From contig JAWMAR010000392.1 of the NCBI GenBank assembly GCA_036785375.1, positions 1,054,001 through 1,118,000 of the forward strand: a stretch of DNA of 64,000 bases. The letters run 5' to 3'. The notes below the pieces were generated by a model that was not told where the DNA came from, did not search any database, and saw only the letters and a list, made by a program, of their open reading frames with translations. Each line of letters starts with the position of its first letter. The stretch's first letter is position 1. Position numbers and translations under genes: made by a program. Below are positions 4,688-33,065 of the stretch, piece by piece. The stretch is from Leucoraja ocellata. Lineage: Eukaryota.

Positions 4688-4822
4688 TCACCTGCGTTGC
4701 ACTCTCTGTGGCACAGCGTAGATAATGCCTGCGTCCTGATTATCTGATGTTGCTGGCCTGTTGGCCTTAGGAAGCTGGAGAAGGCAGTATGTGGTCTCAA
4801 CCGGTGAATCTAATTCCAGGGC
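4688..4822 (-). CDS. Exon 5 (terminal coding exon) with tyrosine signalling motifs
   Basis: Acceptor ctctccctgttcttcacag| in phase 0. Reads ALELDSPVETTYCLLQLPKANRPATSDNQDAGIIYAVPQRVQRR*. TTYCLL fits TxYxxL (ITSM) and IYAVP fits YxxP. Confidence 0.75.
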   Translation of the reverse strand, partial: ALELDSPVETTYCLLQLPKANRPATSDNQDAGIIYAVPQRVQRR

Positions 4823-5334
4823 CTGTGAAGAACAGGGAGAGGACCATTTATGGGATGCAATATTCGAGTTGATGCAAGAAAGTATGTAGCTGGGCAACAA
4901 GTGGTTAATGGAGGAAGACTACGTTTTCAGATACTTTGAGAGGAAAGTTGGAATGTGGAACATGGAATAGTACAACACAGGAACAGGCTCTTCAGCCCAG
5001 TGTCTACGCTGAACATGAAGCCAAAATAAACTAGTTTCAACTGCCTGCACATGGAGTTATAGTGTCATAGTATGAAAACAGTCCCTTCAGCCCAACTAGC
5101 CCATGCCAACCAGCATGCCCCATCTACACATGTCCCATCTGCCTCAATCCTTCTAAACCTATCCTATCGAGGTAACTTTGTGGCAGCACAATGGAGCAGT
5201 GATAGAGTTGCTGCCTTACAGCACCAGAGACCCGGGTTCGATCCTGACTATGGGTGCTGTCTGTACGGAGTGTGTACGTGGGTTTTCTCCAAGATCTTCG
5301 GTTTTCTCCCACACTGCAAAGATGTACAGGTTTA

Positions 5335-5716
5335 TAACCATATAACCATATAACAATTACAGCACGGAAACAGGCCATCTCGGCCCTACAAGTCCGTGCC
5401 GAACAACTTTTTTTCCCCTTAGTCCCACCTGCCTGCACTCATACCATAACCCTCCATTCCCTTCTCATCCATATGCCTATCCAATTTATTTTTAAATGAT
5501 ACCAATGAACCTGCCTCCACCACTTCCACTGGAAGCTCATTCCACACCGCTACCACTCTCTGAGTAAAGAAGTTCCCCCTCATATTACCCCTAAACTTAT
5601 GTCCCTTAATTCTGAAGTTGTGTCCTCTTGTTTGAATCTTCCCTATTCTCAAAGGGAAAAGCTTGTCCACATCAACTCTGTCTATCCCTCTCATCATTTT
5701 AAAGACCTCTAAAAAC
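5335..5716 (-). mobile_element. Young CR1-A insertion in a V-SINE, TSD GTTTA
   Basis: ORF 5419..5697. The empty site is visible in the duplicated copy at ~13347-13365. Confidence 0.85.
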
Positions 5717-5844
5717 GTTTAGCCCCAGATAGTGTGTGTGGGATAGTTTTAATATGCGGGGATTGCAGTTGGGTACGGACTGGACTGAAGGGCCTGTTTC
5801 TGCGCTGTATTTCATAACAAAAAACTAAACTAAACTATCCAAAT

Positions 5845-6602: not shown

Positions 6603-6897
6603 AAATGCTTTTCAACGCTGTGATAGTACCTGCCTCATCTACCTCCTGTCTACAACTCATTCTATATACCTACCACCCTAGGTGTGAAAGTTGTCCCTCA
6701 GGATCTTTCCCCCCTCATCTTTAACCCGTGTCCTCTGGCTCTTGATATCCCAACTCTGGGTAAAAGACCGTACATTTATCTCTTCATGATCTGATGCACT
6801 TCTATAACATCATCTCTTATCCTGCTGCAATCCAATCCTGCTCAACCTCTCCCCACAACTCAGGCCCATGATTCCTGGCAACGTAAATATTCTCTGT

Positions 6898-7110
6898 GGT
6901 ACACAAAAATGCTGGAGAAACTCAGCGGGTGCAGCAGCATCTATGGAGCGAAGGAAATAGGCAATGTTTCGGGCCGAAACCCTTCTTCAGACTGCGGTTT
7001 CGGCCCGAAACGTTGCCCATTTCCTTCGCTCCATAGATGCGGCTGCACCTGCTGAGTTTCTCCAGCATTTTTGTGTACCTTCGATTTTCCAGCATCTGCA
7101 GTTCCTTCTT
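6898..7110. repeat. Palindromic (inverted) PLE terminal-repeat pair
   Basis: ggtacacaaaaatgctggagaaactcagc...gctgagtttctccagcatttttgtgtacc with ~85-bp arms. Similar structures at ~3980-4165, 9283-9465, 12123-12266, 13775-13956, 16160-16342, 19000-19145, 19907-20088, 21998-22184, 30160-30348 and 63330-63462. Confidence 0.8.
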
Positions 7111-7699
7111 AAATAAATTTTCTCTGCACCCATTTCTGCTTATTCATAATCATAATCGTAATTTATTAGCCAAGTATGTTTTGCAACATACGAGGGATTT
7201 GATTTGCCGTACAGTCATACCAAAAAACAGCAACAAGACACAAGAGGCTGCTGTCGTGTGGCGCCATCTGGTGGGGATCAACCCCAATAACAGGTCGACC
7301 AAAACTGAACACAACACTCCAAATGTGTTCTCAAGGAACATAACTTTCAAACTTCTATGTGTAGGAAGGAACTGCAGATGCTGGTTTAAACCAAACATAG
7401 ACACACAAAGCTGGAGTAACTCAGCGGGACAGGCAGCATCTCTGGAGAGAAGGAACGGGTGGAATAAATATATTCCTGTGAAATGTCAAGTGCTGCATCT
7501 CAGTAGCTCACAGCTCCACAGCTTCCTGTAAATGGCAACACAGGTAGACAAAGTAGTAAAGGAGGGGTATGGTATGCTTGCCTGCGTTGCACGAGCCATT
7601 ACGTATAAGAGTTGGGTCGTGCAGATTTGCATAATGCACCTTTATAGGACATTGGTTGATCTGCATTTGTAGTATTGCGTGCAGTTCTGGTCACCCCGT

Positions 7700-8337
7700 A
7701 CAGATATATTTTGGTGTTGCTCGTTCTTCACTGGCTCGTCTCCAGTTGGTTCAGAATGCTGCTGCTCGCCTTTTAACAGGGACTCAAAAGAGGGAGCACA
7801 TATCACCAATTCTAGCCTCCCTACACTGCCTCCCGGTGCACTTTCGGGTTCATTTTAAGATACTGTTATTTGTTTTTAAATCTCTGAATGGGCTCGCCCC
7901 GCCTTACCTCTCTGAGCTGCTCCACCCATACGCTCCTGCCCAGTCCCTCAGGTCAGCTGGTCAGCTGCTCCTGGAGGTACCGAGGTCTAGTCGGAGGCTC
8001 AGAGGGGATAGAGCCTTCTCTGTTGCTGCTCCGGCACTCTGGAACACCCTGCCGTTGCACATCAGACAGGCCCCCTCACTGTCCATCTTCAAATCCAGTG
8101 TTAAAACGCATTTTTACTCCCTGGCTTTTGACCATGCCTGAGGCTTTGCTTCTGTTTGTGGTGTTTTTGATGTTTCTTTATTTTACATGTCTTTTCCTAC
8201 TATTTCTTTTGATTGTTATTTTTGGTGTGTGTTAACTTTTTTGTCAATGATTAGTGATGTACAGCACTTTGTTGCAGCTATGTTTGTTTTTAAAGTGCTC
8301 TATAAATAAAATTATTATTATTGTTATTATTATTATA
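7700..8337 (+). mobile_element. L2 LINE 3' fragment (duplicate at 14579-15215)
   Basis: LQLVQNAAARLLTG...HISPILASLH(C/W)LPV...GLAPPYLSELL, then AATAAA and a (TAT)n tail. Confidence 0.85.
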
Positions 8338-8636
8338 TAATGTGGAGGCTTTGGAAAGGGCACAGAAGAGGTTTACCAGAACCAGCCTGAATTAGTGGGT
8401 AATGGCTATGAGTGTGTCATCCGTTTGAAGAAGAGTCTCGACCCAAAACGCCACCCATTCCTTCCCTCCAGAGATTCAAGATTCAAGAGAGTTTATTGTC
8501 ATGTGTCCCATATACTCCCTTTGCCTTCCAGATGCTAACATGTTTGGCCAAGGATGAGGGGTCATTTGGCACAATTGATGAAGCAGATTTTATTTTGCGA
8601 ATGATTTCTCCTCCCTCCAACCCACTGCCCACTTAC

Positions 8637-8716
8637 CTTGTTCAAGTCTTGCCGTGAAACTCTGTTAAACGCAACAAATCCTTCCGCGGCGTCCGACTTT
8701 CTCCTTCGATAATAAA
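8637..8716 (-). CDS. Exon 4, copy e
   Basis: Intact AG/GT; variant first codon, (I)YYRRRK... Confidence 0.55.
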
Positions 8717-10032
8717 CTGACATAAAACAATGAGATAGCAACAGGATTTCTAATTGTGCATTATCCAGAGTCTTACCAATTTGTAGCCATTAAATGAAGG
8801 AAGCAGGGCAGCACGGTGGTGCAGCGGTAGAGATACTGCCCTACAGCCCCAGGGACCTGGGTTCGATCCTGACTGCGGGTGCTGTCTGTACGGAATTTGT
8901 ATGTTCGCCCCGTGACCTGCACGGGTTTTCTCCAAGATCTTTGGTTTCCTCCCACACTCCAAAGATGGACAGGTTTGTAGGTTAATTGGCTTGGTATAAA
9001 TGTAAATTGTCCCGAGTGTGTGTAGGATAGTGGGAACATGATCAAAGTGGACTCAGTGGGCTCTAGGTGTGAAAGTTATCCCTCAGGATCTTTCCCCCCC
9101 TCATCTTTAACCCGTGTCCTCTGGCTCTTGATATCCCTACTCTGGGTAAAAGACGGTACATTTATCTCTTCATGGTCTGATGCACTTCTATAACATCATC
9201 TCTTATCCTGCTGCAATCCAAGCCTGCTCAACCTCTCCCCACAACTCAGGCCCATGAGTCCTGGCAAAGTAAATTTTCTCTGTGGTACACAAAAATGCTG
9301 GAGAAACTCAGCGGGTGCAGCAGCATCTATGGAGCGAAGGAAATAGGCAATGTTTCGGGCCGAAACCCTTCTTCAGACTGCGGTTTCGGCCCGAAATGTT
9401 GCCCATTTCCTTCGCTCCATAGATGCTGCTGCACCCGCTGAGTTTCTCCAGCATTTTTGTGTACCTTCGATTTTCCAGCATCTGCAGTTCCTTCTTAAAT
9501 AAATTTTCTCTGCACCCTTTTCTGCTTATTCATAATCATAATCGTAATTTATTAGCCAAATATGTTTTGCAACATACAAGGGATTTGATTTGCCGTACAG
9601 TCATACCAAAAAAAGGCAGCAAGACACACAAGAGGCTGCTGTCGTGTGGCGCCATCTGGTGGGGATCAACCCCAATAACAGGTCGACCAAAACTGAACAC
9701 AACACTCCAAATGTGTTCTCAAGGAACATAACTTTCAAACTTCTATGTGTAGGAAGGAACTGCAGATGCTGGTTTAAACCAAACATAGACACACAAAGCT
9801 GGAGTAACTCAGCGGGACAGGCAGCATCTCTGGAGAGAAGGAACGGGTGGAATAAATTTATTCCTGTGAAATGTCAAGTGCTGCATCTCAGTAACTCACA
9901 GCTCCACAGCTTCCTGTAAATGGCAACACAGGTAGACAAAGTAGTAAAGGAGGGGTATGGTATGCTTGCCTGCATTGCACGAGCCATTACGTATAAGAGT
10001 TGGGTCGTGCAGATTTGCATAATGCAGCTTTA

Positions 10033-10886
10033 CTAGGGGCGCTGCACTGGCAGCAGCCTCTACCTACAGCCTGTCTGTCATTTCCATCTTTTTTATTATT
10101 TTTAGTTAGTCTAAAGTCTGTTTTAGGAGGAAACTTTAACTTTTCTATGTGGGGGAGGGGGGCAGGGTAAGGGGGAAACCGTCTCCAAGTCTCTTCCTAG
10201 CGGGGACGCGACTATTTCTCCGAGTCGCGTCCTCGCCCCCACCTCGCGGCCTACCAGCTGGATCGGAGCGGCCTTTCCTGCCGGGGACCGGGATCCGGAC
10301 CAGGGCTGCTACAGTGGCGGCGCAGCGCTGGAGTCACCGCGGAGCGGGCGATACCTACCTGGGTCGCCGTTTGGACCTCCGGAGCGTTGGGCCGTTGCTC
10401 CAACATCGTGGAGCTCCGGTGCGGAGAGCTTCCAACGCGGGCGGCGCTGAACGGCATCGTGGAGTCCTGGGGCGCCTTGCAGAGGGCCTACAGCAGCAGT
10501 CTCCACCCGGCGCGGCCTGCGGACTTTGGAAGCCGCCGACTCCGGTAGGAGGGGGCCGACTCTGTGTCCATGCCACTGAGGACGTCCCGCAGCCCCGACG
10601 TCGGACTGGTATCATCCCGGCGAGCGGTCCTGGTCATCGGGCCGCCAGTAGCTGCAACTGCGGAGGGCTTGGGGAGACCCTGACCACGGGGAGCAGTGGA
10701 GGAAGAAGACTGACTTTGGTGCCTTCCCACACAGTGGGAAACTTTGATTCTGCTGTGTGGGGATGTTTTGTGTTAAATTCTATAGTGTGTTGAGTCCTGT
10801 TTATTTTTTTTGTATGGCTGTATGGGAATTCATTTCACTGTGCCATCTGGCACATGTGACAATTAAAATCTATCTATCTATCTATC
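10033..10886 (+). mobile_element. GC-rich non-autonomous retroposon with LINE-like 3' stem-loop and (TCTA)n tail (duplicate at 16910-17763)
   Basis: TTTA TSD relative to the empty site gcagctttatagg in the sister subunit. 3' hairpin gtgccatctggcac. Confidence 0.65.
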
Positions 10887-11251
10887 TTTATAGGACATTG
10901 GTTGATCTGCATTTGTAGTATTGCATGCAGTTCTGGTCACCCCTTACAGGTAGAATGTGGAGGCTTTGGAAAGGGCACAGAAGAGGTTTACCAGAACCAG
11001 CCTGAATTAGTGGGTAATGGCTATGAGTGTGTCATCCGTTTGAAGAAGAGTCTCGACCCAAAACGCCACCCATTCCTTCCCTCCAGAGATTCAAGATTCA
11101 AGAGAGTTTATTGTCATGTGTCCCATATACTCCCTTTGCCTTCCAGATGCTAACATGTTTGGCTAAGGAAGAGGGGTCATTTGACACAATTGATGAAGCA
11201 GATTTTATTTTGCAAATGATTTCTCCTCCCTCCAACCCACTGCCCACTTAC

Positions 11252-11331
11252 CTTGTTCAAGTCTTGCCGTGAAACTCTGTTAAACGCAACAAATCCTTCC
11301 GCGGCGTCCGACTTTCTCCTTCGATAATAAT
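11252..11331 (-). CDS. Exon 4, copy d
   Basis: Intact AG/GT; the peptide is visible within ORF 11177..11359. Confidence 0.55.
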
Positions 11332-12411
11332 CTGACATAAAACAATGAGATAGCAACATGATTTCTAATTGTGCATTATCCAGAGTCTTACCAATTTGTA
11401 GCCATTAAATGAAGGAAGCAGGGCAGCACGGTGGTGCAGCGGTAGAGATACTGCCCTACAGCCCCAGAGACCTGGGTTCGATCCTGACTGCGGGTGCTGA
11501 CTGTACGGAATTTGTATGTTCGCCCCGTGACCTGCACGGGTTTTCTCCAAGATCTTTGTTTCCTCCCACACTCCAAAGATGGACAGGTTTGTAGGTTAAT
11601 TGACTTGGTATAAATGTAAATTGTCCCTAGTGTGTGTAGGATAGTGGGAACATGATCAATGTGGACTCAGTGGGCCAAAGGGCCTGTTTCCGTGCTGTAT
11701 CTCTAAACTAAACTAAAACTAAACACAATACTTTAATGCTGGATTAATATGTTGCACATATAGAGCTTTTTTTATAGTAGATTTATAGTGGATATTGGTC
11801 ACTAATTTAGCCTCAGGGGTGCATAAAGAAATGGGGCCAGAGATGGATGAAGTGAAAGTGTGAGCCATTTGACAATTGGCAGCCAAAACGTGGTGAAATT
11901 CTCCAGATGCGGCACGGTGGCGCAGCGGTAGAGTTGCTGCCTCACAGCACCAGAGACGCAGGTTCGATCCTGACTACGGGTGCTGTCTGTTCGGAGTTTG
12001 TACGTTCTCCCCGTAACCTACGTGGGTTTTCTCCGAGATCTTCGGTTTCTTCCTACACTCCAATGACGAGCAGGTTTGTAGGCTAAATGTTCAAGCAGGA
12101 ACTGCAGATGCTGGAAGATCGAAGGTACACAAAAATGCTGGAGAAACTCAGCGGGTGCAGCAGCATCTATGGAGCGAAGGAAATAGGCGACGTTTCGGGC
12201 CAAAACCCTTCCTTCGCTCCATAGATGCTGCTGCACCCGCTGAGTTTCTCCAGCATTTTTGTGTACCCAGGTTTGTAGGCTAATTGGGTTGGTCAAATTA
12301 TAAAATTGCCCCTCCTGTGTGTAGGATAGTATTAGTGTGTGGGGATCGCTGGTCGTAGCGGGCTCGGTGCCGAAGAGCTTATCTCTAAGCTAAACTAAGC
12401 AGAGACCAGTC

Positions 12412-13349
12412 CATAGAGACAGAAACATAGAAATTAGGTGCAGGAGTAGGCCATTCGGCCCTTCGAGCCTGCACCGCCATTCAATATGATCATGGCTGAT
12501 CATCCAACTCAGTATCCCGTACCTGCCTTCTCTCCATACCCCCTGATCCCCTTAGCCACAAGGGCCACATCTAACTCCCTCTTAAATATAGCCAATGAAC
12601 TGGCCTCAACTACCCTCTGTGGCAGAGAATTCCAGAGATTCACCACTCTCTGTGTGAAAAAAGTTCTTCTCATCTCGGTTTTAAAGGATTTCCCCCTTAT
12701 CCTTAAGCTGTGACCCCTTGTCCTGGACTTCCCTAACATCGGGAACAATCTTCCTGCATCTAGCCTGTCCTTAAGAATTTTGTAAGTTTCTATAAGATCC
12801 CCTCTCAATCTCCTAAATTCTAGAGAGTATAAACCAAGTCTATCCAGTCTTTCTTCATAAGACAGTCCTGACATCCCAGGAATCAGTCTGGTGAACCTTC
12901 TCTGCACTCCCTCTATGGCAATAATGTCCTTCCTCAGATTTGGAGACCAAAACTGCACGCAATACTCCAGGTGTGGTCTCACCAAGACCCTGTACAACTG
13001 CAGTAGAACCTCCCTGCTCCTATACTCAAATCCTCTTGCTATGAAAGCCAACATACCATTCGCTTTCTTTACTGCCTGCTGCACCTGCATGCCTACCTTC
13101 AATGACTGGTGTACCATGACACCCAGGTCTCGCTGCATCTCCCCCTTTCCCAATCGGCCACCATCTAGCCTGTCCAACCCCTTAAGAATTTTGTAAGTTT
13201 CTATAAGATCCCCTCTCAATCTCCTAAATTCTAGAGAGTATAAACCAAGTCTATCCAGTCTTTCTTCATAAGACAGTCCTGACATCCCAGGAATCAGTCT
13301 AGTGAACCGTCTCTGCACTCCCTCTATGGCAATAATGTCCTTCCTCAGA
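12412..13349 (-). mobile_element. CR1 family B ((TTTCTATG)n tail), internally rearranged
   Basis: ORF 12509..13318 contains the QRRFTRLIPG...LDRLD segment twice. Confidence 0.85.
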
Positions 13350-15514
13350 TGTACAGGTTTAGCCCCAGATAGTGTGTGTGGGATAGTTTTAATGTGCAGG
13401 GATTGCAGTTGGGTACGGACTGGACTGAAGGGCCTGTTTCTGCGCTGTATTTCATAACAAAAAACTAAACTAAACTATCCAAATGCTTTTCAACGCTGTG
13501 ATAGTACCTGGCCTCATCTACCTCCTGTCTACAACTCATTCCGTATACCTACCACCCTAGGTGTGAAAGTTGTCCCTCAGGATCTTTCCCCCCTCATCTT
13601 TAACCCGTGTCCTCTGGCTCTTGATATCCCAACTCTGGGTAAAAGACTACATTTATCTCTTCATGATCTGATGCACTTCTATAACATCACCTCTTATCCT
13701 GCTGCAATCCAAGCCTGTTCAACCTCTCCCCACAACTCAGGCCCATGATTCCTGGCAACGTAAATTTTCTCTGTGGTACACAAAAATGCTGGAGAAACTC
13801 AGCGGGTGCAGCAGCATCTATGGAGCGAAGGAAATAGGCAACGTTTCGGGCCGAAACCCTTCTTCAGACTGTGGTTTCGGCCCGAAACGTTGCCCATTTC
13901 CTTCGCTCCAAAGATGCTGCTGCACCCGCTGAGTTTCTCCAGCATTTTTGTGTACCTTCGATTTTCCAGCATCTGCAGTTCCTTCTTAAATAAATTTTCT
14001 CTGCACCCTTTTCTGCTTATTCATAATCATAATCGTAATTTATTAGCCAAGTATGTTTTGCAACATACAAGGGATTTGATTTGCCGTACAGTCATACCAA
14101 AAACAGCAACAAGACACACAAGAGGCTGCTGTCGTGTGGCGCCATCTGATGGGGATCAACCCCAATAACAGGTCGACCAAAACTGAACACAACACTCCAA
14201 ATGTGTTCTCAAGGAACATAACTTTCCAACTTCTATTTGTAGGAAGGAACTGCAGATGCTGGTTTAAACCAAACATAGACACACAAAGCTGGAGTAACTC
14301 AGCGGGACAGGCAGCATCTCTGGAGAGAAGGAACGGGTGGAATATATTTATTCCTGTGAAATGTCAAGTGCTGCATCTCAGTAGCTCACAGCTCCACAGC
14401 TTCCTGTAAATGGCAACACAGGTAGACAAAGTAGTAAAGGAGGGGTGTGGTATGCTTGCCTGCGTTGCACGAGCCATTACGTATAAGAGTTGGGTCGTTC
14501 AGATTTGCATAATGCAGCTTTATAGGACATTGGTTGATCTGCATTTGTAGTATTGCGTGCAGTTCTGGTCACCCCTTACAGATATATTTTGGTGTTGCTC
14601 GTTCTTCACTGGCTCGTCTCCAGTTGGTTCAGAATGCTGCTGCTCGCCTTTTAACAGGGACTCGAAAGAGGGAGCACATATCGCCAATTCTGGCCTCCCT
14701 ACACTGGCTCCCGGTGCACTTTCGGGTTCATTTTAAGATACTGTTATTTGTTTTTAAATCTCTGAATGGGCTCGCCCCGCCTTACCTCTCTGAGCTGCTC
14801 CACCCATACGCTCCTGCCCGGTCTCTCAGGTCAGCTGGTCAGCTGCTCCTGGAGGTACCGAGGTCTAGTCGGAGGCTCAGAGGGGATAGAGCCTTCTCTG
14901 TTGCTGCTCCGGCACTCTGGAACACCCTGCCGTTGCACATCAGACAGGCCCCCTCACTGTCCATCTTCAAATCCAGTGTTAAAACGCATTTTTACTCCCT
15001 GGCTTTTGACCATGCCTGAGGCTTTGCTTCTGTTTGTGGTGTTTTTGATGTTTCTTTATTTTACTTGTCTTTTCCTACTATTTCTTTTGATTGTTATTTT
15101 TGGTGTGTGTTAACTTTTTTGTCAATGATTAGTGATGTACAGCACTTTGTTGCAGCTATGTTTGTTTTTAAAGTGCTCTATAAATAAAATTATTATTATT
15201 GTTATTATTATTATATAATGTGGAGGCTTTGGAAAGGGCACAGAAGAGGTTTACCAGAACCAGCCTGAATTAGTGGGTAATGGCTATGAGTGTGTCATCC
15301 GTTTGAAGAAGAGTCTCGACCCAAAACGCCACCCATTCCTTCCCTCCAGAGATTCAAGATTCAAGAGAGTTTATTGTCATGTGTCCCATATACTCCCTTT
15401 GCCTTCCAGATGCTAACATGTTTGGCCAAGGATGAGGGGTCATTTGGCACAATTGATGAAGCAGATTTTATTTTGCGAATGATTTCTCCTCCCTCCAACC
15501 CACTGCCCACTTAC

Positions 15515-15594
15515 CTTGTTCAAGTCTTGCCGTGAAACTCTGTTAAACTCAACAAATCCTTCCGCGGCGTCCGACTTTCTCCTTCGATAATAAA
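15515..15594 (-). CDS. Exon 4, copy c
   Basis: Intact AG/GT; variant reading (I)YYRRRKSDAAEGFVEFNRVSRQDLNK. Confidence 0.55.
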
Positions 15595-18128
15595 CTGACA
15601 TAAAACAATGAGATAGCAACAGGATTTCTAATTGTGCATTATCCAGAGTCTTACCAATTTGTAGCCATTAAATGATGGAAGCAGGGCAGCACGGTGGTGC
15701 AGCGGTAGAGATACTGCCCTACAGCCCCAGGGACCTGGGTTCGATCCTGACTGCGGGTGCTGTCTGTACGGAATTTGTATGTTCGCCCCGTGACCTGCAC
15801 GGGTTTTCTCCAAGATCTTTGGTTTCCTCCCACACTCCAAAGATGGACAGGTTTGTAGGTTAATTGGCTTGGTATAAATGTAAATTGTCCCGAGTGTGTG
15901 TAGGATAGTGGGAACATGATCAAAGTGGACTCAGTGGGCTCTAGGTGTGAAAGTTATCCCTCAGGATCTTTCCCCCCTCATCTTTAACCCGTGTCCTCTG
16001 GCTCTTGATATCCCTACTCTGGGTAAAAGACGGTACATTTATCTCTTCATGGTCTGATGCACTTCTATAACATCATCTCTTATCCTGCTGCAATCCAAGC
16101 CTGCTCAACCTCTCCCCACAACTCAGGCCCATGAGTCCTGGCAAAGTAAATTTTCTCTGTGGTACACAAAAATGCTGGAGAAACTCAGCGGGTGCAGCAG
16201 CATCTATGGAGCGAAGGAAATAGGCAATGTTTCGGGCCGAAACCCTTCTTCAGACTGCGGTTTCGGCCCGAAATGTTGCCCATTTCCTTCGCTCCATAGA
16301 TGCTGCTGCACCCGCTGAGTTTCTCCAGCATTTTTGTGTACCTTCGATTTTCCAGCATCTGCAGTTCCTTCTTAAATAAATTTTCTCTGCACCCTTTTCT
16401 GCTTATTCATAATCATAATCGTAATTTATTAGCCAAATATGTTTTGCAACATACAAGGGATTTGATTTGCCGTACAGTCATACCAAAAAAAGGCAGCAAG
16501 ACACACAAGAGGCTGCTGTCGTGTGGCGCCATCTGGTGGGGATCAACCCCAATAACAGGTCGACCAAAACTGAACACAACACTCCAAATGTGTTCTCAAG
16601 GAACATAACTTTCAAACTTCTATGTGTAGGAAGGAACTGCAGATGCTGGTTTAAACCAAACATAGACACACAAAGCTGGAGTAACTCAGCGGGACAGGCA
16701 GCATCTCTGGAGAGAAGGAACGGGTGGAATAAATTTATTCCTGTGAAATGTCAAGTGCTGCATCTCAGTAACTCACAGCTCCACAGCTTCCTGTAAATGG
16801 CAACACAGGTAGACAAAGTAGTAAAGGAGGGGTATGGTATGCTTGCCTGCATTGCACGAGCCATTACGTATAAGAGTTGGGTCGTGCAGATTTGCATAAT
16901 GCAGCTTTACTAGGGGCGCTGCACTGGCAGCAGCCTCTACCTACAGCCTGTATGTCATTTCCATCTTTTTTATTATTTTTAGTTAGTCCAAAGTCTGTTT
17001 TAGGGGGAAACTTTTACTTTTCTATGTGGGGGAGGGGGGCAGGGTAAGGGGGAAACCGTTTCTCAGCCTCTTCCTAGCGGGGACGCGACTATTTCTCCGA
17101 GTCGCGTCCTCGCCCCCCATCTCGCGGCCTACCAGCTGGATCGGAGCGGCCTTTCCTGCCGGGGACCGGGATCCGGACCAGGGCTGCTACAGTGGCGGCG
17201 CAGCGCTGGAGTCACCGCGGAGCGGGCGATACCTACCTGGGTCGCCGTTTGGACCTCCGGAGCGTTGGGCCGTTGCTCCAACATCGTGGAGCTCCGGTGC
17301 GGAGAGCTTCCAACGCGGCGGCGCTGAACGGCATCGTGGAGTCCTGGGGCGCCTTGTAGAGGGCCTACAGCAGCAGTCTCCACCCGGCGCGGCCTGCGGA
17401 CTTTGGAAGCCGCCGACTCCGGTAGGAGGGGGCCGACTCTGTGTCCATGCCACTGAGGACGTCCCGCAGCCCCGACGTCGGACTGGTATCATCCCGGCGT
17501 GCGGTCCTGGACATCGGGCCGCCAGTAGCTGCAACTGCGGAGGGCTTGGGGAGACCCTGACCACGGGGAGCAGTGGAGGAAGAAGACTGACTTTGGTGCC
17601 TTCCCACACAGTGGGAAACTTTGATTCTGCTGTGTGGGGATGTTTTGTGTTAAATTCTATAGTGTGTTGAGTCCTGTTTATTTTTTTTGTATGGCTGTAT
17701 GGGAATTCATTTCACTGTGCCATCTGGCACATGTGACAATTAAAATCTATCTATCTATCTATCTTTATAGGACATTGGTTGATCTGCATTTGTAGTATTG
17801 CATGCAGTTCTGGTCACCCCTTACAGGTAGAATGTGGAGGCTTTGGAAAGGGCACAGAAGAGGTTTACCAGAACCAGCCTGAATTAGTGGGTAATGGCTA
17901 TGAGTGTGTCATCCGTTTGAAGAAGAGTCTCGACCCAAAACGCCACCCATTCCTTCCCTCCAGAGATTCAAGATTCAAGAGAGTTTATTGTCATGTGTCC
18001 CATATACTCCCTTTGCCTTCCAGATGCTAACATGTTTGGCTAAGGAAGAGGGGTCATTTGACACAATTGATGAAGCAGATTTTATTTTGCAAATGATTTC
18101 TCCTCCCTCCAACCCACTGCCCACTTAC

Positions 18129-18208
18129 CTTGTTCAAGTCTTGCCGTGAAACTCTGTTAAACGCAACAAATCCTTCCGCGGCGTCCGACTTTCTCCTTCG
18201 ATAATAAT
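18129..18208 (-). CDS. Exon 4, copy b
   Basis: Same 80-nt exon with intact AG/GT, inside the tandem duplication. Confidence 0.55.
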
Positions 18209-21128
18209 CTGACATAAAACAATGAGATAGCAACAGGATTTCTAATTGTGCATTATCCAGAGTCTTACCAATTTGTAGCCATTAAATGAAGGAAGCAGGG
18301 CAGCACGGTGGTGCAGCGGTAGAGATACTGCCCTACAGCCCCAGAGACCTGGGATCGATCCTGACTGCGGGTGCTGACTGTACGGAATTTGTATGTTCGC
18401 CCCGTGACCTGCACGGGTTTTCTCCAAGATCTTTGTTTCCTCCCACACTCCAAAGATGGACAGGTTTGTAGGTTAATTGACTTGGTATAAATGTAAATTG
18501 TCCCTAGTGTGTGTAGGATAGTGGGAACATGATCAATGTGGACTCAGTGGGCCAAAGGGCCTGTTTCCGTGCTGTATCTCTAAACTAAACTAAAACTAAA
18601 CACAATACTTTAATGCTGGATTAATATGTTGCACATATAGAGCTTTTTTTATAGTAGATTTATAGTGGATATTGGTCACTAATTTAGCCTCAGGGGTGCA
18701 TAAAGAAATGGGGCCAGAGATGGATGAAGTGAAAGTGTGAGCCATTTGACAATTGGCAGCCAAAACGTGGTGAAATTCTCCAGAAGCGGCACGGTGGCGC
18801 AGCGGTAGAGTTGCTGCCTCACAGCACCAGAGACGCAGGTTCGATCCTGACTACGGGTGCTGTCTGTTCGGAGTTTGTACGTTCTCCCCGTAACCTACGT
18901 GGGTTTTCTCCGAGATCTTCGGTTTCTTCCTACACTCCAATGACGAGCAGGTTTGTAGGCTAAGTGTTCAAGCAGGAACTGCAGATGCTGGAAGATCGAA
19001 GGTACACAAAAATGCTGGAGAAACTCAGCGGGTGCAGCAGCATCTATGGAGCGAAGGAAATAGGCGACGTTTCGGGCCAAAACCCTTCCTTCACTCCATA
19101 GATGCTGCTGCACCCGCTGAGTTTCTCCAGCATTTTTGTGTACCCAGGTTTGTAGGCTAATTGGGTTGGTAAAATTATAAAATTGCCCCTCGTGTGTGTA
19201 GGATAGTATTAGTGTGCGGGGATCCCTGCTCGTAGCGGGCTCGGTGTGCCGAAGAGCTTATCTCTAAGCTAAACTAAGCAGAGACCAGTCCATAGAAACA
19301 GAAACATAGAAATTAGGTGCAGGAGTAGGCCATTCGGCCCTTCGAGCCTGCACCGCAATTCAATATGATCATGGCTGATCATCCAACTCAGTATCCCGTA
19401 CCTGCCTTCTCTCCATACCCCCTGATCCCCTTAGCCACAAGGGCCACATCTAACTCCCTCTTAAATATAGCCAATGAACTGGCCTCAACTACCCTCTGTG
19501 GCAGAGAGTTCCACAGATTCACCACTCTCTGTGTGAAAAAAGTTCTTCTCATCTCGGTTTTAAAGGATTTCCCCCTTATCCTTAAGCTGTGACCCCTTGT
19601 CCTGGACTTCCCTAACATCGGGAACAATCTTCCTGCATCTAGCCTGTCCAACCCCTTAAGAATTTTGTATGTTTCTATACCTACCACCCTAGGTGTGAAA
19701 GTTGTCCCTCAGGATCTTTCCCCCCTCATCTTTAACCCGTGTCCTCTGGCTCTTGATATCCCAACTCTGGGTAAAAGACTACATTTATCTCTTCATGATC
19801 TGATGCACTTCTATAACATCACCTCTTATCCTGCTGCAATCCAAGCCTGCTCAACCTCTCCCCACAACTCAGGCCCATGATTCCTGGCAACGTAAATATT
19901 CTCTGTGGTACACAAAAATGCTGGAGAAACTCAGCGGGTGCAGCAGCATCTATGGAGCGCAGGAAATAGGCAACGTTTCGGGCCGAAACCCTTCTTCAGA
20001 CGGCGGTTTCGGCTCGAAATGTTGCCCATTTCCTTCGCTCCTTAGATGCTGCTGCACCCGCTGAGTTTCTCCAGCATTTTTGTGTACCTTCGATTTTCCA
20101 GCATCTGCAGTTCCTTCTTAAATAAATTTTCTCTGCACCCTTTTCTGCTTATTCATAATCATAATCGTAATTTATTAGCCAAGTATGTTTTGCAACATAC
20201 GAGGGATTTGATTTGCCGTACAGTCATACCTAATATCTTGGCCTCCACAACGTCTGTGGCAATGAGTTCCACAGATTCACCACCCTGACTAAATGAATTA
20301 AGCAGTTTCTTACTCAACCATCTCATCTTCCCATCACCCACACTCTCCTCCCATCAGGTTCTCCCCCGCCCCTCTCCTCATTGCCATCTGCCCACCCAAC
20401 GTCTCTCCTTTGGTGAGAGGAATGGGTGACGATTTGGAACGAGACCCTTCTTCAGACCCCCATTCCTTCAATCCTGCCTGTCAGAGTTACTCCAGCGTTT
20501 TGTGTCTATCTTTGGCTTAAACCAGTATCTGCAGTTCCTTCCTACACCTTTCTCTTCTTTGGTCCCAGACACCACCATCCCTTCCCTTCCCATCTGATCC
20601 CATCATCTGCAACCCCTGGTCACCTCCATCATTCACATCCCACCCACCATTGTTATCACCATCCCTCTTTAACCCAGTTCAACTATATCCAGCAATCCAT
20701 CCCCTCCTCAACCTGGATCCACTGACCAGGTGCCACCTCTTTCCACCCCCCCACACCCTACTGGTTTTCCCCTCCCCACCCTGATAGTCCAGAGGAAAGG
20801 TCCCAACCCGAAATGTCGACTGTCCATTTCCTTCTCCTGATACTGCCTGACACGCTGAGTTCCTGCAGCTTCGGCACAAAATGCTGGAGCAACTCAGTGG
20901 GTCAGGCAGCATCTCTGGAGACAAGGAAGAGGTGACTATGTTTCGGGTTGAGACCCTTCTTCAGAAGCTCCAGCAGCTCAAATGTATACAACCAGAATCA
21001 CATTCACTCCCTTTGCCTTCCAGATGCTAACATGTTTGGCTAAGGAAGAGGGGTCATTTGACACAATTGATGAAACAGATTTTATTTTGCGAATGACTTC
21101 TCCTCCCTCCAACCCACTGCCCACTTAC

Positions 21129-21208
21129 CTTGTTCAAGTCTTGCCGTGAAACTCTGTTAAACGCAACAAATCCTTCTGCGGCGTCCGACTTTCTCCTTCG
21201 ATAATAAT
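21129..21208 (-). CDS. Exon 4, copy a (juxtamembrane cytoplasmic exon)
   Basis: Acceptor ttgttttatgtcag| and donor AAG|GTAAGT, 80 nt, phase 1 to 0. Reads (N)YYRRRKSDAAEGFVAFNRVSRQDLNK, with a basic stop-transfer cluster. Confidence 0.75.
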
Positions 21209-24921: not shown

Positions 24922-25056
24922 TCCTGAGGCCTTTGGTCAGCAGTATGGTCAAGCCAATGGTGATTAGGACAAGGAAAAGGGATGCGGGTATAACTGTATC
25001 CATCAGCCTGTTCCGCCCAGATCCTGTTGTAGTCGCGGAAGTGGAGGTGACACTTT
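24922..25056 (-). CDS. Exon 3: Ser/Thr-rich stalk plus transmembrane helix
   Basis: Acceptor ttttattacag| and donor A|GTAAGT, 135 nt, phase 1 to 1. Reads (E)SVTSTSATTTGSGRNRLMDTVIPASLFLVLITIGLTILLTKGLR. Confidence 0.8.
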
Positions 25057-26895: not shown

Positions 26896-27050
26896 TGAGA
26901 ATGGAACAATGGTCTCCGGCGCTGTGAGGCAGCAACTCTACCGCTGCGCCGATGGGAGGGAAGGGGTTACTCTCACTTTAATTACATTGCTATTTGGACT
27001 TTCATGCTTTAATTGCCCCCTCTGTGTTTGAACGCTCCGCCGGTTCCTAC

Positions 27051-27320
27051 CTGTCTCTGTGTGGTGATTGTAGACCGTTAATGTCACGGTGTCTTTCACG
27101 CTGCTGTTTCCGCCGCTGTAAACCGATATCTCGTACACTCCGCTGTCACTGCGCCGTAAATCCCGCAGTAACAGGGACCCATTCACGGGGTAGAGTTGGA
27201 CTCGCCCCGTGTGGGATGGACTGGTCGTCCAGCGAATTGAACAGTTACAACCGGGTCGGTCAGTGTGTGGAGGGCAGGTTACACAGAAAAGCTGGAGAAA
27301 CTCAGCGGGTGCAGCAGCAT
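27051..27320 (-). CDS. Exon 2: Ig V-set domain (C-terminal half native; 5' boundary uncertain)
   Basis: Reads ...HTGRVQLYPVNGSLLLRDLRRSDSGVYEISVYSGGNSSVKDTVTLTVYNHHTET, with V-set D/E/F/G strand motifs (GRV, NGSLxLxxL, DSGxY, TLTV) and no F-strand Cys. Donor G|GTAGGA is phase 1 at 27051. The start at 27320 uses the acceptor tttccttcgctccatag inside a PLE repeat (270 nt, open frame). Confidence 0.7.
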
Positions 27321-27735
27321 CTATGGAGCGAAGGAAATAGGCAACGTTTCGGGCCGAAACCCTTCTTCAGACTGATCGGGGGTGGGGGTGGGTCGGGACA
27401 AGAAAGGGAAAAGGAGGAGTAGCCAGAAGGCTGGAGGGTGGGAGGAGACAGTAGGGGAGCTGAGGAAGGGGAGGAGACAGCAAGGACTAACAGAATTGGG
27501 AGAATTCGATGTTCATGCCCCGGGGGTGTAGACTCCCCAAACGGAATATGAGGTGCTGTTCCTCCAATTTCCGGTGCTGCTCGCTGTGGCCATGGAGGAG
27601 ACCCAGGACAGAGAGGTCGGAGGCGGAGTGGGAGGGGGAGTTGAAGTGCTGAGCCACCGGGAGGTCAGCTTGGTTATTGTGGACCGAGCGGAGGTGTTCG
27701 GCGATGCTCCCCTACTGTCTCCTCCCACCCTCCAG
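27278..27735 (-). mobile_element. Penelope-like element 3' fragment: GIY-YIG C-terminal region plus terminal repeat with hammerhead motif
   Basis: Minus-strand frame at ~27703-27495 reads AEHLRSVHNNQADLPVAQHFNSPSHSASDLSVLGLLHGHSEQHRKLEEQHLIFRLGSLHPRGMNIEFSQF. Hammerhead core CTGAAGA...GAAACGTT at 27370-27343. Confidence 0.85.
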
Positions 27736-27741
27736 AGGCCA

Positions 27742-28990
27742 TGGAACAGGCCATGTCGACCCTTCTAGTCCGTGCCGAACACATAATCTCCCCTAGTCCC
27801 ATATACCTGCGCTCAGACCATAACCCTCCATTCCCTTCCCATCCATATAACTATCCAATTTATTTTTAAATGATAAAAACGAACCTGCCTCCACCACCTT
27901 CACTGGAAGCTCATTCCACACAGCTACCACTCTCTGAGTAAAGAAGTTCCCCCTCATGTTACCCCTAAACTTCAGTCCCTTAATTCTCATGTCATGTCCC
28001 CTTGTTTGAATCTTCCCTACTCTCAGTGGGAAAAGCTTTTCCACGTCAACTCTGTCTATCCCTCTCATCATTTTAAAACCTCTATCAAGTCCCCCCTTAA
28101 CCTTCTGCGCTCCAAAGAATAAAGCCCTAACTTGTTCAACCTTTCTCTGTAACTTAGTTGCTGAAACCCAGGCAACATTCTAGTAAATCTCCTCTGTACT
28201 CTCTCTATTTTGTTGACATCCTTCCTATAATTAGGCGACCAAAATTGTACACCATACTCCAGAATTGGCCTCACCAATGCCTTGTACAATTTTAACATTA
28301 CATCCCAACTTCTATACTCAATGCTCTGATTTATAAAGGCCAGCACACCAAAAGCTTTCTTTACCACCCTATCTACATGAGATTCCACTTTCAGGGAACT
28401 GTGCACAGTTATTCCCAGATCCCTCTGTTCTCCTACATTCTTCAATTCCCTACCATTTACCATGTACGTCCTATTTTGATTTGTCCTGCCAAGATGTAGC
28501 ACCTCACACTTATCAGCATTAAACTCCATCTGCCATCTTTCAGCCCTCTCTTCCAACTGGCATAAATCTCTCTGTAGACTTTGAAACTCTACATCATTAC
28601 CCGCAACCCCACCTATCTTAGTATCATCTGCATACTTACTAATCCAATTTACCACACCATCATCCAGATCATTGATGTACATGACAAACAACAGTGGACC
28701 CAACACAGATCACTGTGGCACCCCACTAGTCACTGGCCTCCAACCTGACAAACAACTATCCACCATTACTCTCTGGCATCTCCCATTCAGCCACTGTTGA
28801 ATCCATCTTGCTACTCCACCATTAATACCCAACCATTGAACCTTCTTAACCAACCTTCCATGAGGAACCTTGTCAAAGGCCTTACTGAAGTCCATATACA
28901 CAACATCCACTGCGTTACCCTCATCAATTTCCTGTGTAACATCTTCAAAAAATTCAAGAAGATTAGTTAAACATGACCTTCCAGGCACAA
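27742..28990 (-). mobile_element. CR1-A, RT to 3' end, with stop and frameshift
   Basis: ORFs 28710..28988, 28068..28706 (YADD) and 27793..28071. Confidence 0.9.
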
Positions 28991-31900
28991 ATAACAGCGG
29001 CTCAGCGAACTACTGTACACATTGCTAATCGGGGGATTGTGCTGTGGTATGGCCATACTTTACTGAACTGTATTACAGATGAATTTCACTGTGCAAGTTG
29101 CACATGTAACAATAAAACACAATAGAATAATTGAAGAGGCCACGCACCCAACCAACTGGTTGATACATTTTAAGTTGAAGAAAATCTTGCAGTTGAAGAA
29201 AATTTGAAGAAAATAGTACAATTCACAACAATATGAACTTTGAAATGAGTTGCCCAATAATATCAAATGTAGAGTGAAAGTAGCACAGAAGACCATTCAG
29301 CCTTCCAGATCGTGCTGGCTCTTTATAGAATAACTCGCTGGTTCCACACAGCATTCTCCATACTTTTGTAATTATTTTTATTGGCATATTTCTCCACTTC
29401 CCTCTTAGGAACCACAGTGGAACCTACCCCCTCAACCCCAGACAACAGTATGTTCCAGATCTCAACTTTGTGCTTTATTAAACAAAAACATTATTCTACC
29501 CGGAGATTCTGCCTGTCCCGCTGAGTTACTCCAGCATTTTGTGTCTGTCTTCGGTGCAGACTGGTATCTGCAGTTCCTTCCTGCAAGTTTCACCTCATGT
29601 TGCTCTAAATAGACGGGAAAGGTTTGGAAGGGACAGCAAGCAAGTGGGAATAAGTAGTGAGGCAACGTGGTTAGTAGAGACGAGTTCAGCCGAAGGGTCT
29701 GATTCCGTGCTATATAACTATGACTATCACTCTACCCCTTTATTTCACACCCAAGACTTCCAATCCTCGATCGCTCCTTGAAGAAAACAGCCTCCTACCT
29801 CCAAACCTTTCATTATTTTATATATTTATTGTCAAATCAACCTCTCTTGCACAATAAAAGCTGTCCCAGCCCCTCTAATCCCACTTCATAACCATTTTCT
29901 CATTCTCTTTCATATTCTCCAAGTGTAGTATAGATTATTGGCAGTATGCCGAGGTACAATGTTTTTGTTGCGTGCTAATCAGTCAGTGGAAACACAATAC
30001 ATGGTTACAATCGAGTCATCCACGGTGTACAGATACAAGATAAAGGAAATACATTTAGTGCAAGATAAAGTCCAGTAAAGTCCGATCAAAGATAGCTCGA
30101 GGGTCTCCAATGAGGTGGATAACATCTCATGCGGGCTTGTAGGTTATTTTGTTTCTGTAGGTACACAAAAAAAGCTGTAGAAACTCAGCGGGTGCAGCAG
30201 CGTCTATGGAGCAAAGGAAATAGGCAACGTTTCAGGCAGAAACCCTTCTTCAGACTGAAGAAGGGTTTCGGCCCGAAACGTTGCCTATTTCCTTCGCTCC
30301 ATAGATGCTGCTGCACCCGCTGAGTTTCTCCAACCTTTTTGTGTACCTTCGATTTTCCAGCATCTGCAGTTCCTTCTTAAACATTTAGTTTCTGTACATT
30401 GCTACTAATGTGTAGGGAGTGGATGACGTGGATGTTTTCAAGAGAGAGTTAGATATGGCTCTTAGGACTGACGGAATCAAGGGACATGCGGAGAAAGCAG
30501 GAACAGGGTACTGATTCTGCATGATCAGCAGTGATCATATTGAATGGCGGTGCTGGCTCGAAGGGCCAAATGGCCTACTCCTGCACCTATTTTCTATGTT
30601 TCTATGAATAACACGTGTGCATGGGTGATCAATGGTCAGCGTGGGCTTGATGGGCTGAAGGGCCTGTTTCCATGCTATGTGAAGTCATAGAGTCATGCAG
30701 GATGGAAACAGGCCCCTCAGCCGAACCTGCCCTTGCGGACCAAAATGCCCCATCTACACTAGTCTTACATACCTGTACGTACGTTGTCCCATATCCCTCT
30801 AAACCTGTCTTATCCATCCTGTATCTGTAAATGTTTCTGGGTCCTCTCTATCGTGTTCATACCCTTTCTAAAATGGTCGATGAGAATTGAATATATCACT
30901 CCAGTTTGAGGTTAAACCGGTGTTTCACAAATAGTTCAGTGTGACTTCTCTGCTTCTAACGTTCTATGAATAAAACCCATGATTGCGTGTACCTTATTAA
31001 CTGCTTTCTCAATAGGTCTAGTCACGTACCATGACCTGTACACATGTAAAGAGTAAAGCAGCCACTTTGCACAGATGAGGTTCCCACAAAGAGAAAGCCG
31101 GTTTGATTCAACCATTTGTTTCAGTGGTAGCGGTGTGGAATGAGCTTCCAGTGGAAGTGGTGGAGGCAGGTTCATTGGTATCATTTAAAAATAAATTGGA
31201 TAGGCATATGGATGAGAAGGAAATGGAGGGTTATGGTATGAGTGCAGGCAGGTGGGACTAAGGGGGGAAAAAATTTGTTCGGCACGGACTTGTAGGGCCG
31301 AGATGGCCTGTTTCCGTGCTGTAATTGTTATATGGTTATATGGTTAACTGGTGACTCTGTACATTGTCTCAGTGTACTACTGCGATACACTTGTACTGTA
31401 GCTGAGATGCTGATCTAAGATGTATCTACGTGCTTATGTATAGTGATACTTGTACTGAACTGTACACAAAAATGAAATTCACTGAACCTCGAGTGTCAGG
31501 GGTTGTGGAGAGAAAGCAGGGGAAAGGGGTTGAGAGGGAGAGATAGATCAGCCATGATTGAATGGTAGTGTAGACTTGATGGGCCAAAAGGTCTAATTCT
31601 GCTCCTATCACTTGTGAACATGAGAGATATAAAGACCGTTGACCTATTGAGACATTTGGCCCACAATGTCCATGAAGAGTGTAACACCGGTCTAAACTAA
31701 TCTCTGTCTGCACATGATGACTATCCCCCTATTCCCAGCATATCCATGTGTCTATCTAAAAGCCTCCAAAACACCACTATCATATCTGCCTCCATCACCA
31801 CACCCCTGGCAGGGCCACCATCCTCTGTGTAGAAAGATAGAAACATAGGAACATAGAAAATAGATGCAGGAGTAGGCCATTCGACCCTTCGAGCCAGCAC

Positions 31901-32971
31901 CGCCATTCAATATGATCATGGCTGATCACCCAAAATCAATATCCCGTTCCTGTTTTCTCCCCATATCCCTTGATTCCATTAGCTCTAAGAGCTAAATCTA
32001 ACCCTCAATTGAAAGCATCCAGTGAATTGGCCTCCACTGCCTTCTGTGGCAGAGAATTCCACAGATTCACAACTCTCTGGGTGAAAATGTTTTTCCTCAT
32101 CTCGGTCCTAAATGGTCTACCCCTTATTCTTAAACTGTGTGACCCCTGGATCTGGATTCCCCCAACATCAGGAAAAACAACAGCCCCTTCAGCCCAACTT
32201 GCCCACACCGGCCAACATTGGCCAGCTACACTAACAGGCTAAGTGGGGCCTCGCATGGTGGCATAGATGGGCCGAGGAAAGAACACTGTTATATATAATC
32301 TTGTTCAAAACACTAAATGCTGGAGTGACTCAGCGGGGCAGGCAAAATCCAGAGAAGCATGGAGTCACAGAGTGATACATCGTGGAAACAGGTCCTTCGG
32401 CCAACCGAGTCCTCGCCAACCAGCCGACACACACTCAGGATAATTTTACAATTTACTGCAGACCTGAATTAATAAACAATTGATCTTGAATTAATCTCCA
32501 CCAGACGTTCCCCTAACACAAACCTGACCTGTTGGTAATCCCTTTGTGCAATTGTAACAATTTATAGTCATAGAGTGATACAGTGTGGAAACAGGTACTT
32601 CAGTCCAACTTGCCCACATGGTCAACTTGCCCCAGATGCACTAGTCCCACCTGCCCGCGTTTAGTCCATATCCTTCCAAACATGTCCTATCCATGTTCCT
32701 GTCTAACTGTTTATTAAACGATGGATATAGTCCCAGCCTCAACTACCTCCTCTGGCAGATTGTTCCATTCACCTGCCACCCTTTGTGCGAAAACGTTACC
32801 CCTCAGATTCCTATTAAATCTTTTCCCCTCACCTTAAATCTATGTTCCCTGGTCCTCGATTCACCAACTTCCCGATCTATTCCTCTCGTGATTTGATACA
32901 CTGTGGAGGATTCCTATGTGGAGCGAACTCGCATTACAACAAAGACAAATAAAACAATCTCACCGACTTAC

Positions 32972-33065
32972 CCGAGAGACAAACCCAAGTGGCGGCGAGG
33001 ATGAAAATGCCGGAGAAATCGTTTTCCCTGCGAGTTCTTCGCCGCGGTGTACGATTCTCGGACAT
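32972..33065 (-). CDS. Exon 1 (leader/signal peptide) of predicted CD2/SLAM-like Ig receptor
   Basis: ATG at 33065 reads MSENRTPRRRTRRENDFSGIFILAATWVCLS, followed by a G|GTAAGT consensus donor in phase 1. Basic n-region plus hydrophobic core, in a CpG-rich unique segment. Confidence 0.7.

Follow-up and report, generated by a model that had tools for sequence, protein, structure and literature searches.

Exon structure of the gene in the window

A 64,000-nucleotide stretch of the genome of the skate Leucoraja ocellata (GenBank assembly GCA_036785375.1, contig JAWMAR010000392.1, positions 1,054,001 to 1,118,000 of the forward strand; here called the window) carries the exons of a receptor gene with a single immunoglobulin (Ig) V domain and a tyrosine-motif tail, in which a young retroelement has replaced the first half of the V exon. 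A first-pass annotation of this DNA had proposed five minus-strand exons with canonical splice sites, 714 nt in length and encoding 237 aa. This was borne out: with exon 2 taken as 27320-27051, AG/GT ends were found throughout, and the frame joined through one exon 4 comprised 714 nt, 237 aa and one terminal stop. Apart from exon 4, which is present in five copies (see below), the gene parts are as follows.

32972..33065, minus strand: exon 1, leader (31 codons plus 1 nt, phase 1), 28/31 identical to the leader of Amblyraja LOC116990023
27051..27277, minus strand: V exon remnant, 75 codons, 67/75 identical to Amblyraja LOC116990025
24922..25056, minus strand: exon 3, S/T stalk and uncharged transmembrane (TM) segment, 41/45 identical to Amblyraja, a single match in the assembly
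4688..4822, minus strand: exon 5, tail with TTYCLL (at the position of the immunoreceptor tyrosine-based inhibitory motif [ITIM] of the family), IIYAVP and the stop, 35/44 identical to Amblyraja

The V exon remnant spans the first conserved cysteine and strands C'', D, E, F and G and has kept its natural donor. Exon 4 was identical to the thorny-skate (Amblyraja) protein in 25/27 positions, and exons 1, 3, 4 and 5, together with the 75 codons that end exon 2, were 80-93% identical to thorny-skate proteins; judged by these identities, the exons are genuine gene parts and not chance. The TM segment, YYRRRK, TTYCLL and IIYAVP that had been claimed were all found in the predicted product (Kyte-Doolittle hydropathy 2.6 at aa 143-161, with no central charge). 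Skipping of exon 2 was computed to be in frame and to yield 147 aa.

A retroelement has replaced the first half of the V exon

Three features define the 5' side of exon 2.

27278..27320, minus strand: repeat-derived start of the proposed exon 2, about 14 codons in frame, behind a cryptic acceptor AG at 27322-27321
27276..27744, minus strand: 3' end of a young Penelope-like retroelement (27704-27276), with a 30-nt inverted piece (27706-27735) at its 5' side
27745..28992, minus strand: fragment of a long interspersed nuclear element (LINE) in intron 1, presumably of CR1 type, judging by its reverse transcriptase (RT)-like frames, with its 3' end cut where the insert begins

Exon 2 is a chimera of a retroelement tail and the V exon remnant. 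The acceptor and the first 43 nt of the exon were located in a repeat with up to 39 self-hits in the window, and homology to an intact paralogous V exon (L002, 13 kb to the right of the window) began at 27277, with CT microhomology at the junction between the 3' end of the insert and the V exon. Lost with the natural acceptor were 58 codons, encoding strands A, A', B, C and most of C'. Orthologues have 58 extra codons ahead of the first retained cysteine; a pattern for this N-terminal half was matched by 29/33 elasmobranch proteins, and three of the four misses showed the stretch by eye. The window product also lacks the tryptophan that is conserved in 52 of the 53 rows of the family alignment. 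The exon had been taken for the V domain of an intact receptor; a 75-codon remnant is there, but the exon is not whole, having been beheaded by the retroelement. The HMMER check against V-set that had been proposed did return an Ig match, but one that covered just positions 66-109 of the 109 in the profile and, with 24.6 bits, stayed below the cut-off of 26. AlphaFold modelled the product of the window exon 2 with six strands, the repeat-derived residues forming a partial C' strand at a predicted local distance difference test score (pLDDT) of 61-63.

The insert was 99.1-99.5% identical in DNA to copies at three other loci (L075-L077), while the exons of the window gene were free of stops and frameshifts. 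Its copy number is high: a first look gave 135,546 candidates, of which 150 were scored and had 97-100% protein identity. We named it Penelope-like because of a weak terminal GIY-YIG match in a longer copy (L076), in which a 397-aa frame ends in this match (E 0.004, 17.8 bits, below the cut-off of 22.6). Elements of this kind encode an RT followed by a GIY-YIG endonuclease. Pfam called no RT domain in that frame; the longer copy contains putative YIDD and CxxC motifs. High copy number, 5'-truncated copies and inverted segments, hallmarks of Penelope-like elements, were all seen for the insert. We infer a retrotransposition that is real and very recent and in which target DNA was lost: the acceptor and 174 coding nt at the least, or about 340 nt should L002 and the window share the upstream LINE insertion.

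Use of the cryptic acceptor is plausible because the natural donor stands 270 nt downstream. The acceptor is pyrimidine-rich, and just 8/417 AGs of intron 1, itself included, scored as good or better. The introns of the gene have this motif at 9 sense-strand sites, its own occurrence counted, so the acceptor is no sign of selection.

Five copies of exon 4

The exon that precedes the tail was found in five copies, which differed from one another by 0-3 nt; four of them are carried by a tandem duplication.

21129..21208, minus strand: exon 4 copy 1 (80 nt, phase 1 to 0)
18129..18208, minus strand: exon 4 copy 2
15515..15594, minus strand: exon 4 copy 3
11252..11331, minus strand: exon 4 copy 4
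8637..8716, minus strand: exon 4 copy 5
6603..19679: tandem segmental duplication, 6603-12794 versus 13481-19679 (6.2 kb, 98.8%), with 4/5 exon 4 copies

Because exon 4 changes the phase, any inclusion other than a single one leads to loss of the tyrosine motifs: a transcript with no copy would reach a stop at aa 174 and one with two to five copies at aa 217, both ahead of the motifs, and inclusion of any single copy keeps them. No exon 4 was found in the assembly beyond the five copies in the window, and exon 3 gave one match.

A receptor family of jawed vertebrates, MHC-linked in sharks and rays

The layout of leader, V domain, stalk, TM segment and tail with two tyrosine motifs, which had been proposed for cartilaginous fish, recurred in relatives in skates, rays and sharks. 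RefSeq contains orthologues from Amblyraja (LOC116990025), Rhinoraja (LOC144602877), Pristis (LOC127586104), Carcharodon (LOC121291131), Scyliorhinus (LOC119975690) and Mustelus (LOC144496850), all automatic models called uncharacterized and bearing no family name. They share with the window gene this layout, with 60-93% identity per exon for the skate orthologues, and, in Carcharodon, Scyliorhinus and Pristis, a location on the chromosome that carries the major histocompatibility complex (MHC). They have a whole V exon and differ in this from the window copy, in which the exon is 58 codons short and exon 4 stands five times. As had been claimed, a C2 domain was absent: the V-set domain alone preceded the TM segment in five orthologues, and tblastn of orthologues found no further Ig exon in the window. 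The proposal that the receptor is specific to chondrichthyans did not hold, since more distant relatives were found not only in chimaera but also in gar, tarpon, lungfish, coelacanth, amphibians, one lizard, turtles, alligator, birds and platypus (species names from 30 of 150 listed representatives). Full-length leader-V-TM-tail models were present in Gallus (LOC771657), Anas, Anser and Phasianus. In a profile-profile comparison, the elasmobranch alignment matched a platypus protein at 98.7% (E 3.6e-16), both cysteines being aligned.

The V domain had been described as disulfide-less. This stands for the canonical pair of strands B and F: the F-strand position (132) was V, I, L or M in 53/53 rows, and a cysteine occurred at B-strand positions 49-53 in at most 3/53 aligned members. 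The domain is not cysteine-free, however, as a pair in C' and C'' was kept in 47/53 and 48/53 members. Given a 53-row alignment, AlphaFold modelled the Mustelus orthologue (mean pLDDT 75.8) with ten strands, of which C' (74-85) and C'' (92-100) were long; the register of these cysteines across the modelled hairpin would fit a cross-strand disulfide. Fold searches returned generic IgV only.

A quick tree placed the window remnant in a skate clade (Shimodaira-Hasegawa-like approximate likelihood ratio test [SH-aLRT] 95) inside an elasmobranch clade (97), with a separate tetrapod clade (95) whose link to the elasmobranch clade was not resolved. The lone therian row in a word search scoring about 8,000 candidates was a PSG22-like protein (E 9e-10); a further word search (about 8,000 candidates scored) had therians in 0/26 rows, and none was among the 30 named representatives, which suggests that the family was lost in therians. 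The open-access literature yielded no description of the family, and subscription work on MHC-linked V genes (e.g., on Xenopus XMIV) may cover part of it. The family is real, MHC-linked in sharks and rays, of likely paired-receptor pattern and apparently unnamed.

Gene models of the family were variable in structure (rows P0005, P0010, P0111, P0046 and P0004): the tail exon was duplicated in Rhinoraja and Mobula members, V domains were in tandem in chicken (two) and in one duck model (six), and one Amblyraja model had its leader replaced by a retrotransposon RT frame, likely a mis-model.

Location in the MHC region

The scaffold that carries the window (C392) has, at a distance of 133 kb from exon 1 and without an intervening N gap, exons of a BET gene (bromodomains and ET domain; best PDB match BRD2, E 6.7e-51); an exon of beta-2-microglobulin (E 1e-28) was found at 188 kb.

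L069:2099-9436 and L070:3855-4136 (C392 about 1,220-1,232k), minus strand: BRD2-like exons
L089:6617-6970, minus strand: beta-2-microglobulin exon

Linkage of B2M and BRD2 is given as a mark of the elasmobranch MHC in PMC10751288, and by its gene content scaffold C392 is, we conclude, part of the MHC region. In the gene lists of that source, white shark LOC121291131 is at chr19:94.8 Mb, with GABBR1/DHX16/NRM on one side and NOTCH4 (96.5 Mb) on the other. Sawfish LOC127586104 is at chr34:9.9 Mb (NOTCH4 at 8.9 and BRD2 at 13.0) and is accompanied by two further members of the family (11.3 and 11.5 Mb). The catshark gene, LOC119975690, is at 20.5 Mb (NOTCH4 at 17.6). The orthologues are thus 1-3 Mb from NOTCH4 on the MHC chromosomes of these three species and are unlabelled in these lists (PMC10751288), which do not include the lungfish and chimaera members. 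MHC linkage may be limited to elasmobranchs. The 90.9-Mb contig of the chicken member is presumably chromosome 4, not the MHC chromosome.

Parts of the window gene have duplicates elsewhere on C392. An exon 1 duplicate (98%) at 861.7k (L037) ends 4.5 kb before a 200-N gap, and an orphan exon 5 duplicate (99%) at 401.6k (L035) had neither an exon 4 upstream nor a gap within 40 kb. The coding differences between the window and these duplicates were 6/6 non-synonymous, too few to judge; about five of the six look derived on the window side by comparison with Amblyraja and Rhinoraja, again on small numbers. V-exon fragments were present in both orientations at C392 797.3k, 1,129.5k, 1,132.0k and 1,134.8k. 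A second subfamily, resembling Pristis LOC127585951, was represented by a partial V exon and four terminal-exon copies at C392 106k, 499k, 590k, 688k and 742k (L080, L083-L086) and by two whole V exons on C849 at 322k and 395k (L008, L009).

Tail motifs and paired-receptor pattern

An ITIM is defined as (S/I/V/L)xYxx(I/V/L) and the immunoreceptor tyrosine-based switch motif (ITSM) as TxYxx(V/I) in PMC12151841. By these definitions TTYCLL, which had been read as an ITSM, is strictly neither. The first tail motif of the elasmobranch orthologues was an ITIM in 14/16, TxYxxL in 2/16 and a strict ITSM in 0/16; an ITIM in the long tail of most orthologues and the uncharged TM segment in the window are what an inhibitory member should have. 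Relatives in birds, turtles and platypus did have true TxYxx[IV] motifs; in most cases an ITIM-like motif comes next.

Other members have an arginine at the outer edge of the TM segment. From 150 representatives, 87 had a whole family V domain, 61 of them with a TM segment; a tyrosine motif was found in 2/17 members with this arginine versus 23/44 without it (Fisher P = 0.004), by a rule set after the sequences had been seen, among related rows, and with about nine further arginine-bearing, motif-less rows that escaped the pattern counted as arginine-negative. Two genes of the arginine-bearing, short-tailed type (like Leucoraja LOC129716097) are on C392, at 790-800k and 1,123-1,136k.

C392 800.5k-790k, minus strand: sister gene 1 (L022-L023, L003)
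C392 1,122.8k-1,136.3k, plus strand: sister gene 2 (L010-L011, L002)

Their V exons were 91-94% identical in DNA to that of the window and their leaders different; both genes were frameshifted in the assembly, partly in homopolymers, which may reflect decay or sequence errors. L002 has an intact V exon in which 11 codons are duplicated internally; its read-through matched the secreted-looking Amblyraja model LOC116990023. TM-edge arginine couples to FcR-gamma in LILRA, GPVI and NKp46. The predicted proteins suggest that the family splits into forms with an ITIM tail and forms with a TM arginine and short tail, a paired-receptor pattern.

Relation to known receptors

CD2/SLAM receptors are defined by an N-terminal V domain without the B-F disulfide, by a membrane-proximal C2 domain and by an ITSM in the tail. 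The family resembles them in the first trait (the window copy lacks the B strand altogether), in the D-strand sequence RV..P.NGSL.L, in DSG.Y.V and in the tyrosine tail; it differs in having no C2 domain, a long C'-C'' hairpin with a cysteine pair, an ITIM instead of an ITSM in elasmobranchs and a position in the MHC. CD2/SLAM membership was rejected on the missing C2 domain, the absence of an ITSM from 16 elasmobranch orthologues and the conserved C'-C'' pair. CD2-like V and C exons do occur on the scaffold at C392 898-1016k, named by no match, and in white shark a gene labelled SLAMF is 20 Mb away from the orthologue. On the family profile, the CD2-like V exons of C392 scored 25-29 bits versus 108-348 for members, and by this score they form a separate cluster that is unrelated to the family. 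These CD2/SLAM-like exons were V-type at C392 897.9k, 925.1k, 987.2k and 1,016k and C-type at 993.5k and 995.5k (Ig exon loci L055:5031-5405, L064:5857-6219 and L062:3515-3796).

With CEACAM proteins the family shares a disulfide-less N-type V domain (CEACAM N domains were the best, if weak, PDB sequence matches, E about 1e-5 to 1e-2) and the logic of paired receptors, but its putative activators have a TM arginine and not an immunoreceptor tyrosine-based activation motif (ITAM) tail. CEACAM loci are defined between LIPE and BCL3 (PMC5112662 and PMC13278318), and the orthologues lie among MHC genes; a search for the LIPE family gave no match, nor did its controls match anything. No complete CEACAM gene was found in chicken or duck according to PMC13278318, and the full-length family members in both birds argue against CEACAM membership, at least for the tetrapod branch. 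The identity with CD2/SLAM or CEACAM receptors put forward in the first-pass annotation was thus not supported by the tests run.

The GTVG.S.LL.VSY A'-B motif and the lack of a B-F disulfide resemble N domains of the HEPACAM, HEPACAM2 and VSTM5 type, and several family members bear the automatic name HEPACAM-like. HEPACAM has a C2 domain and no ITIM, and no true HEPACAM was among the matches of the two family word searches (about 8,000 candidates scored). ITIM members beside short-tailed members with an outer TM arginine and near-identical ectodomains are also found among LILR, KIR, NKp46 and GPVI, but there with C2-type domains in the leukocyte receptor complex, not with a single N-type V domain in the MHC. 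NKp30, UrIg and Xenopus XMIV are likewise non-rearranging V-domain genes in the MHC. NKp30 and UrIg are of VJ type with the canonical disulfide, and that identity was rejected on the absence of the B-F disulfide from the family. UrIg is VJ-C1 in PMC10751288, and white shark UrIg is at 108.5 Mb versus 94.8 Mb for the orthologue.

Interpretation of the window copy

The window gene is orthologous to the MHC-linked receptor of sharks and rays with a single V domain and tyrosine motifs, and this skate copy is probably a recent null or hypomorphic allele. All five exons are orthologous to those of the intact genes, the retroelement replacement has defined boundaries, and strands A-A'-B-C with the core tryptophan are gone; because the replacement removed the first half of the Ig domain, the copy is likely disabled. 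By analogy, an intact member would be a leukocyte inhibitory receptor whose long, probably disulfide-tied C'-C'' hairpin would bind ligand and whose ITIM-type tail, once phosphorylated, would recruit SHP-1/SHP-2. It would be balanced by neighbouring partner genes with a near-identical V exon, a TM arginine, a short tail and FcR-gamma signalling. In the window copy, exon 1 could be spliced to the cryptic acceptor of the element to give the 237-aa half-domain protein, or exon 2 could be skipped to give the 147-aa product; neither would be expected to bind ligand.

Several points weigh against this interpretation. The window gene is known from DNA alone, with a predicted transcript; signalling partners, cell type and ligand of the family are assigned by analogy; and the predicted TM segment and tail of the window copy are intact. 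The half-domain model reached a mean pLDDT of 77, an alignment-driven value that is no proof of stability. The frame of the chimeric exon 2 is open and keeps both conserved cysteines, and functional exonisation would look alike. In the second tail motif of elasmobranchs, position +3 is A, P, S or V, which fits neither ITIM nor ITSM, and the post hoc arginine rule tempers the paired pattern. Finally, an intact unassembled copy is possible because the exon 1 duplicate adjoins a gap.

The last point leads to the view that the damage is confined to one haplotype or is an artefact of assembly, the species having an intact copy on the other haplotype or in a scaffold gap. A very young insertion in an MHC region, exon pieces spread over 750 kb in both orientations and homopolymer-type frameshifts of the sister genes that could be sequencing errors are consistent with it. 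The inversion and microhomology nevertheless look like true retrotransposition, and a 376-nt contig of run X19 agreed with 26924-27299 with zero differences, although it extends just 22 nt into the repeat, short of the 31-nt rule of the tool, and the run may derive from the source sample. Exon 3 had one match and exon 4 only its window copies, and the exon 5 duplicate has neither an upstream exon 4 nor a nearby gap. We regard this view as unlikely; its haplotype version is compatible with a null or hypomorphic allele in the window.

About as doubtful, and in our judgement improbable, is functional exonisation, in which the 237-aa protein (or the skipped 147-aa form) would serve as a ligand-independent inhibitory adaptor or decoy. 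The open frame with canonical sites, the pyrimidine-rich cryptic acceptor, the intact TM segment and tail and the modelled partial C' strand would suit it, but half of the sandwich is gone with its nearly invariant tryptophan, the insertion is so young that selection would not yet show, and inclusion of more than one exon 4 copy would lose the motifs; the exclusively non-synonymous differences from the duplicates, mostly derived on the window side, also speak against it within their small numbers. An intact, lineage-specific CD2/SLAM-like receptor with a SAP/SHP switch through an ITSM is very improbable and, for the window copy, largely refuted: the N-type V domain, the weak matches to N domains of CEACAM, CD2 and CD48, the CD2-like V and C exons 70-190 kb away and the true TxYxx[IV] motifs of bird, turtle and platypus relatives are outweighed by a V exon that is not intact, the missing C2 domain, the lack of a strict first-motif ITSM in elasmobranchs, the low profile scores of the neighbouring CD2-like exons and relatives across gnathostomes.

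The null or hypomorphic allele is a damaged member, and the main interest is in its family. Cartilaginous fish are not known to have well-defined pairs of inhibitory and activating natural killer (NK)-type receptors. The gene content of the elasmobranch MHC serves reconstruction of the ancestral immune complex, to which a conserved V-type paired family near NOTCH4 in three elasmobranchs, listed without a label in the supplement of PMC10751288, adds a concrete candidate. Tentatively, and with considerable doubt, the findings may point to an unnamed pan-gnathostome family of paired single-V receptors in shark and ray MHC that survived to birds and platypus and was lost in therians, with ITIM/ITSM inhibitors, TM-arginine activators and a disulfide-tied C'-C'' hairpin replacing the canonical disulfide. 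It would be a candidate for an ancestral NK-type system sensing MHC or beta-2-microglobulin, a role suggested because the family is MHC-linked, and in the window the inhibitory member of the skate would be present as a segregating knock-out allele. With members in chicken and duck, the family lends itself to laboratory work. The window copy is itself of note as a clean case of very recent replacement by a retroelement: the chimeric frame that results is open and can be taken for an intact gene by those who annotate genes.

Other features of the scaffold

A 1,258-aa single frame (L048:6097-9870, minus strand) combined stonustoxin-type helical, thioredoxin-like, FN3 and GTPase domains; a stonustoxin-like gene stands beside BRD2 in the sawfish MHC list (PMC10751288). 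Single-exon frames resembling G-protein-coupled receptors at C392 about 1,190k (L017), with similar copies, are probably the putative GPR139-like expansion of the same list (PMC10751288). Tandem GNAT acetyltransferase frames were also present on the MHC scaffold (L095:6775-7689 and L096:4242-4889, minus strand), and the window contained a GC-rich minisatellite at 37577-38062 with a 20-nt period and 24.5 copies.

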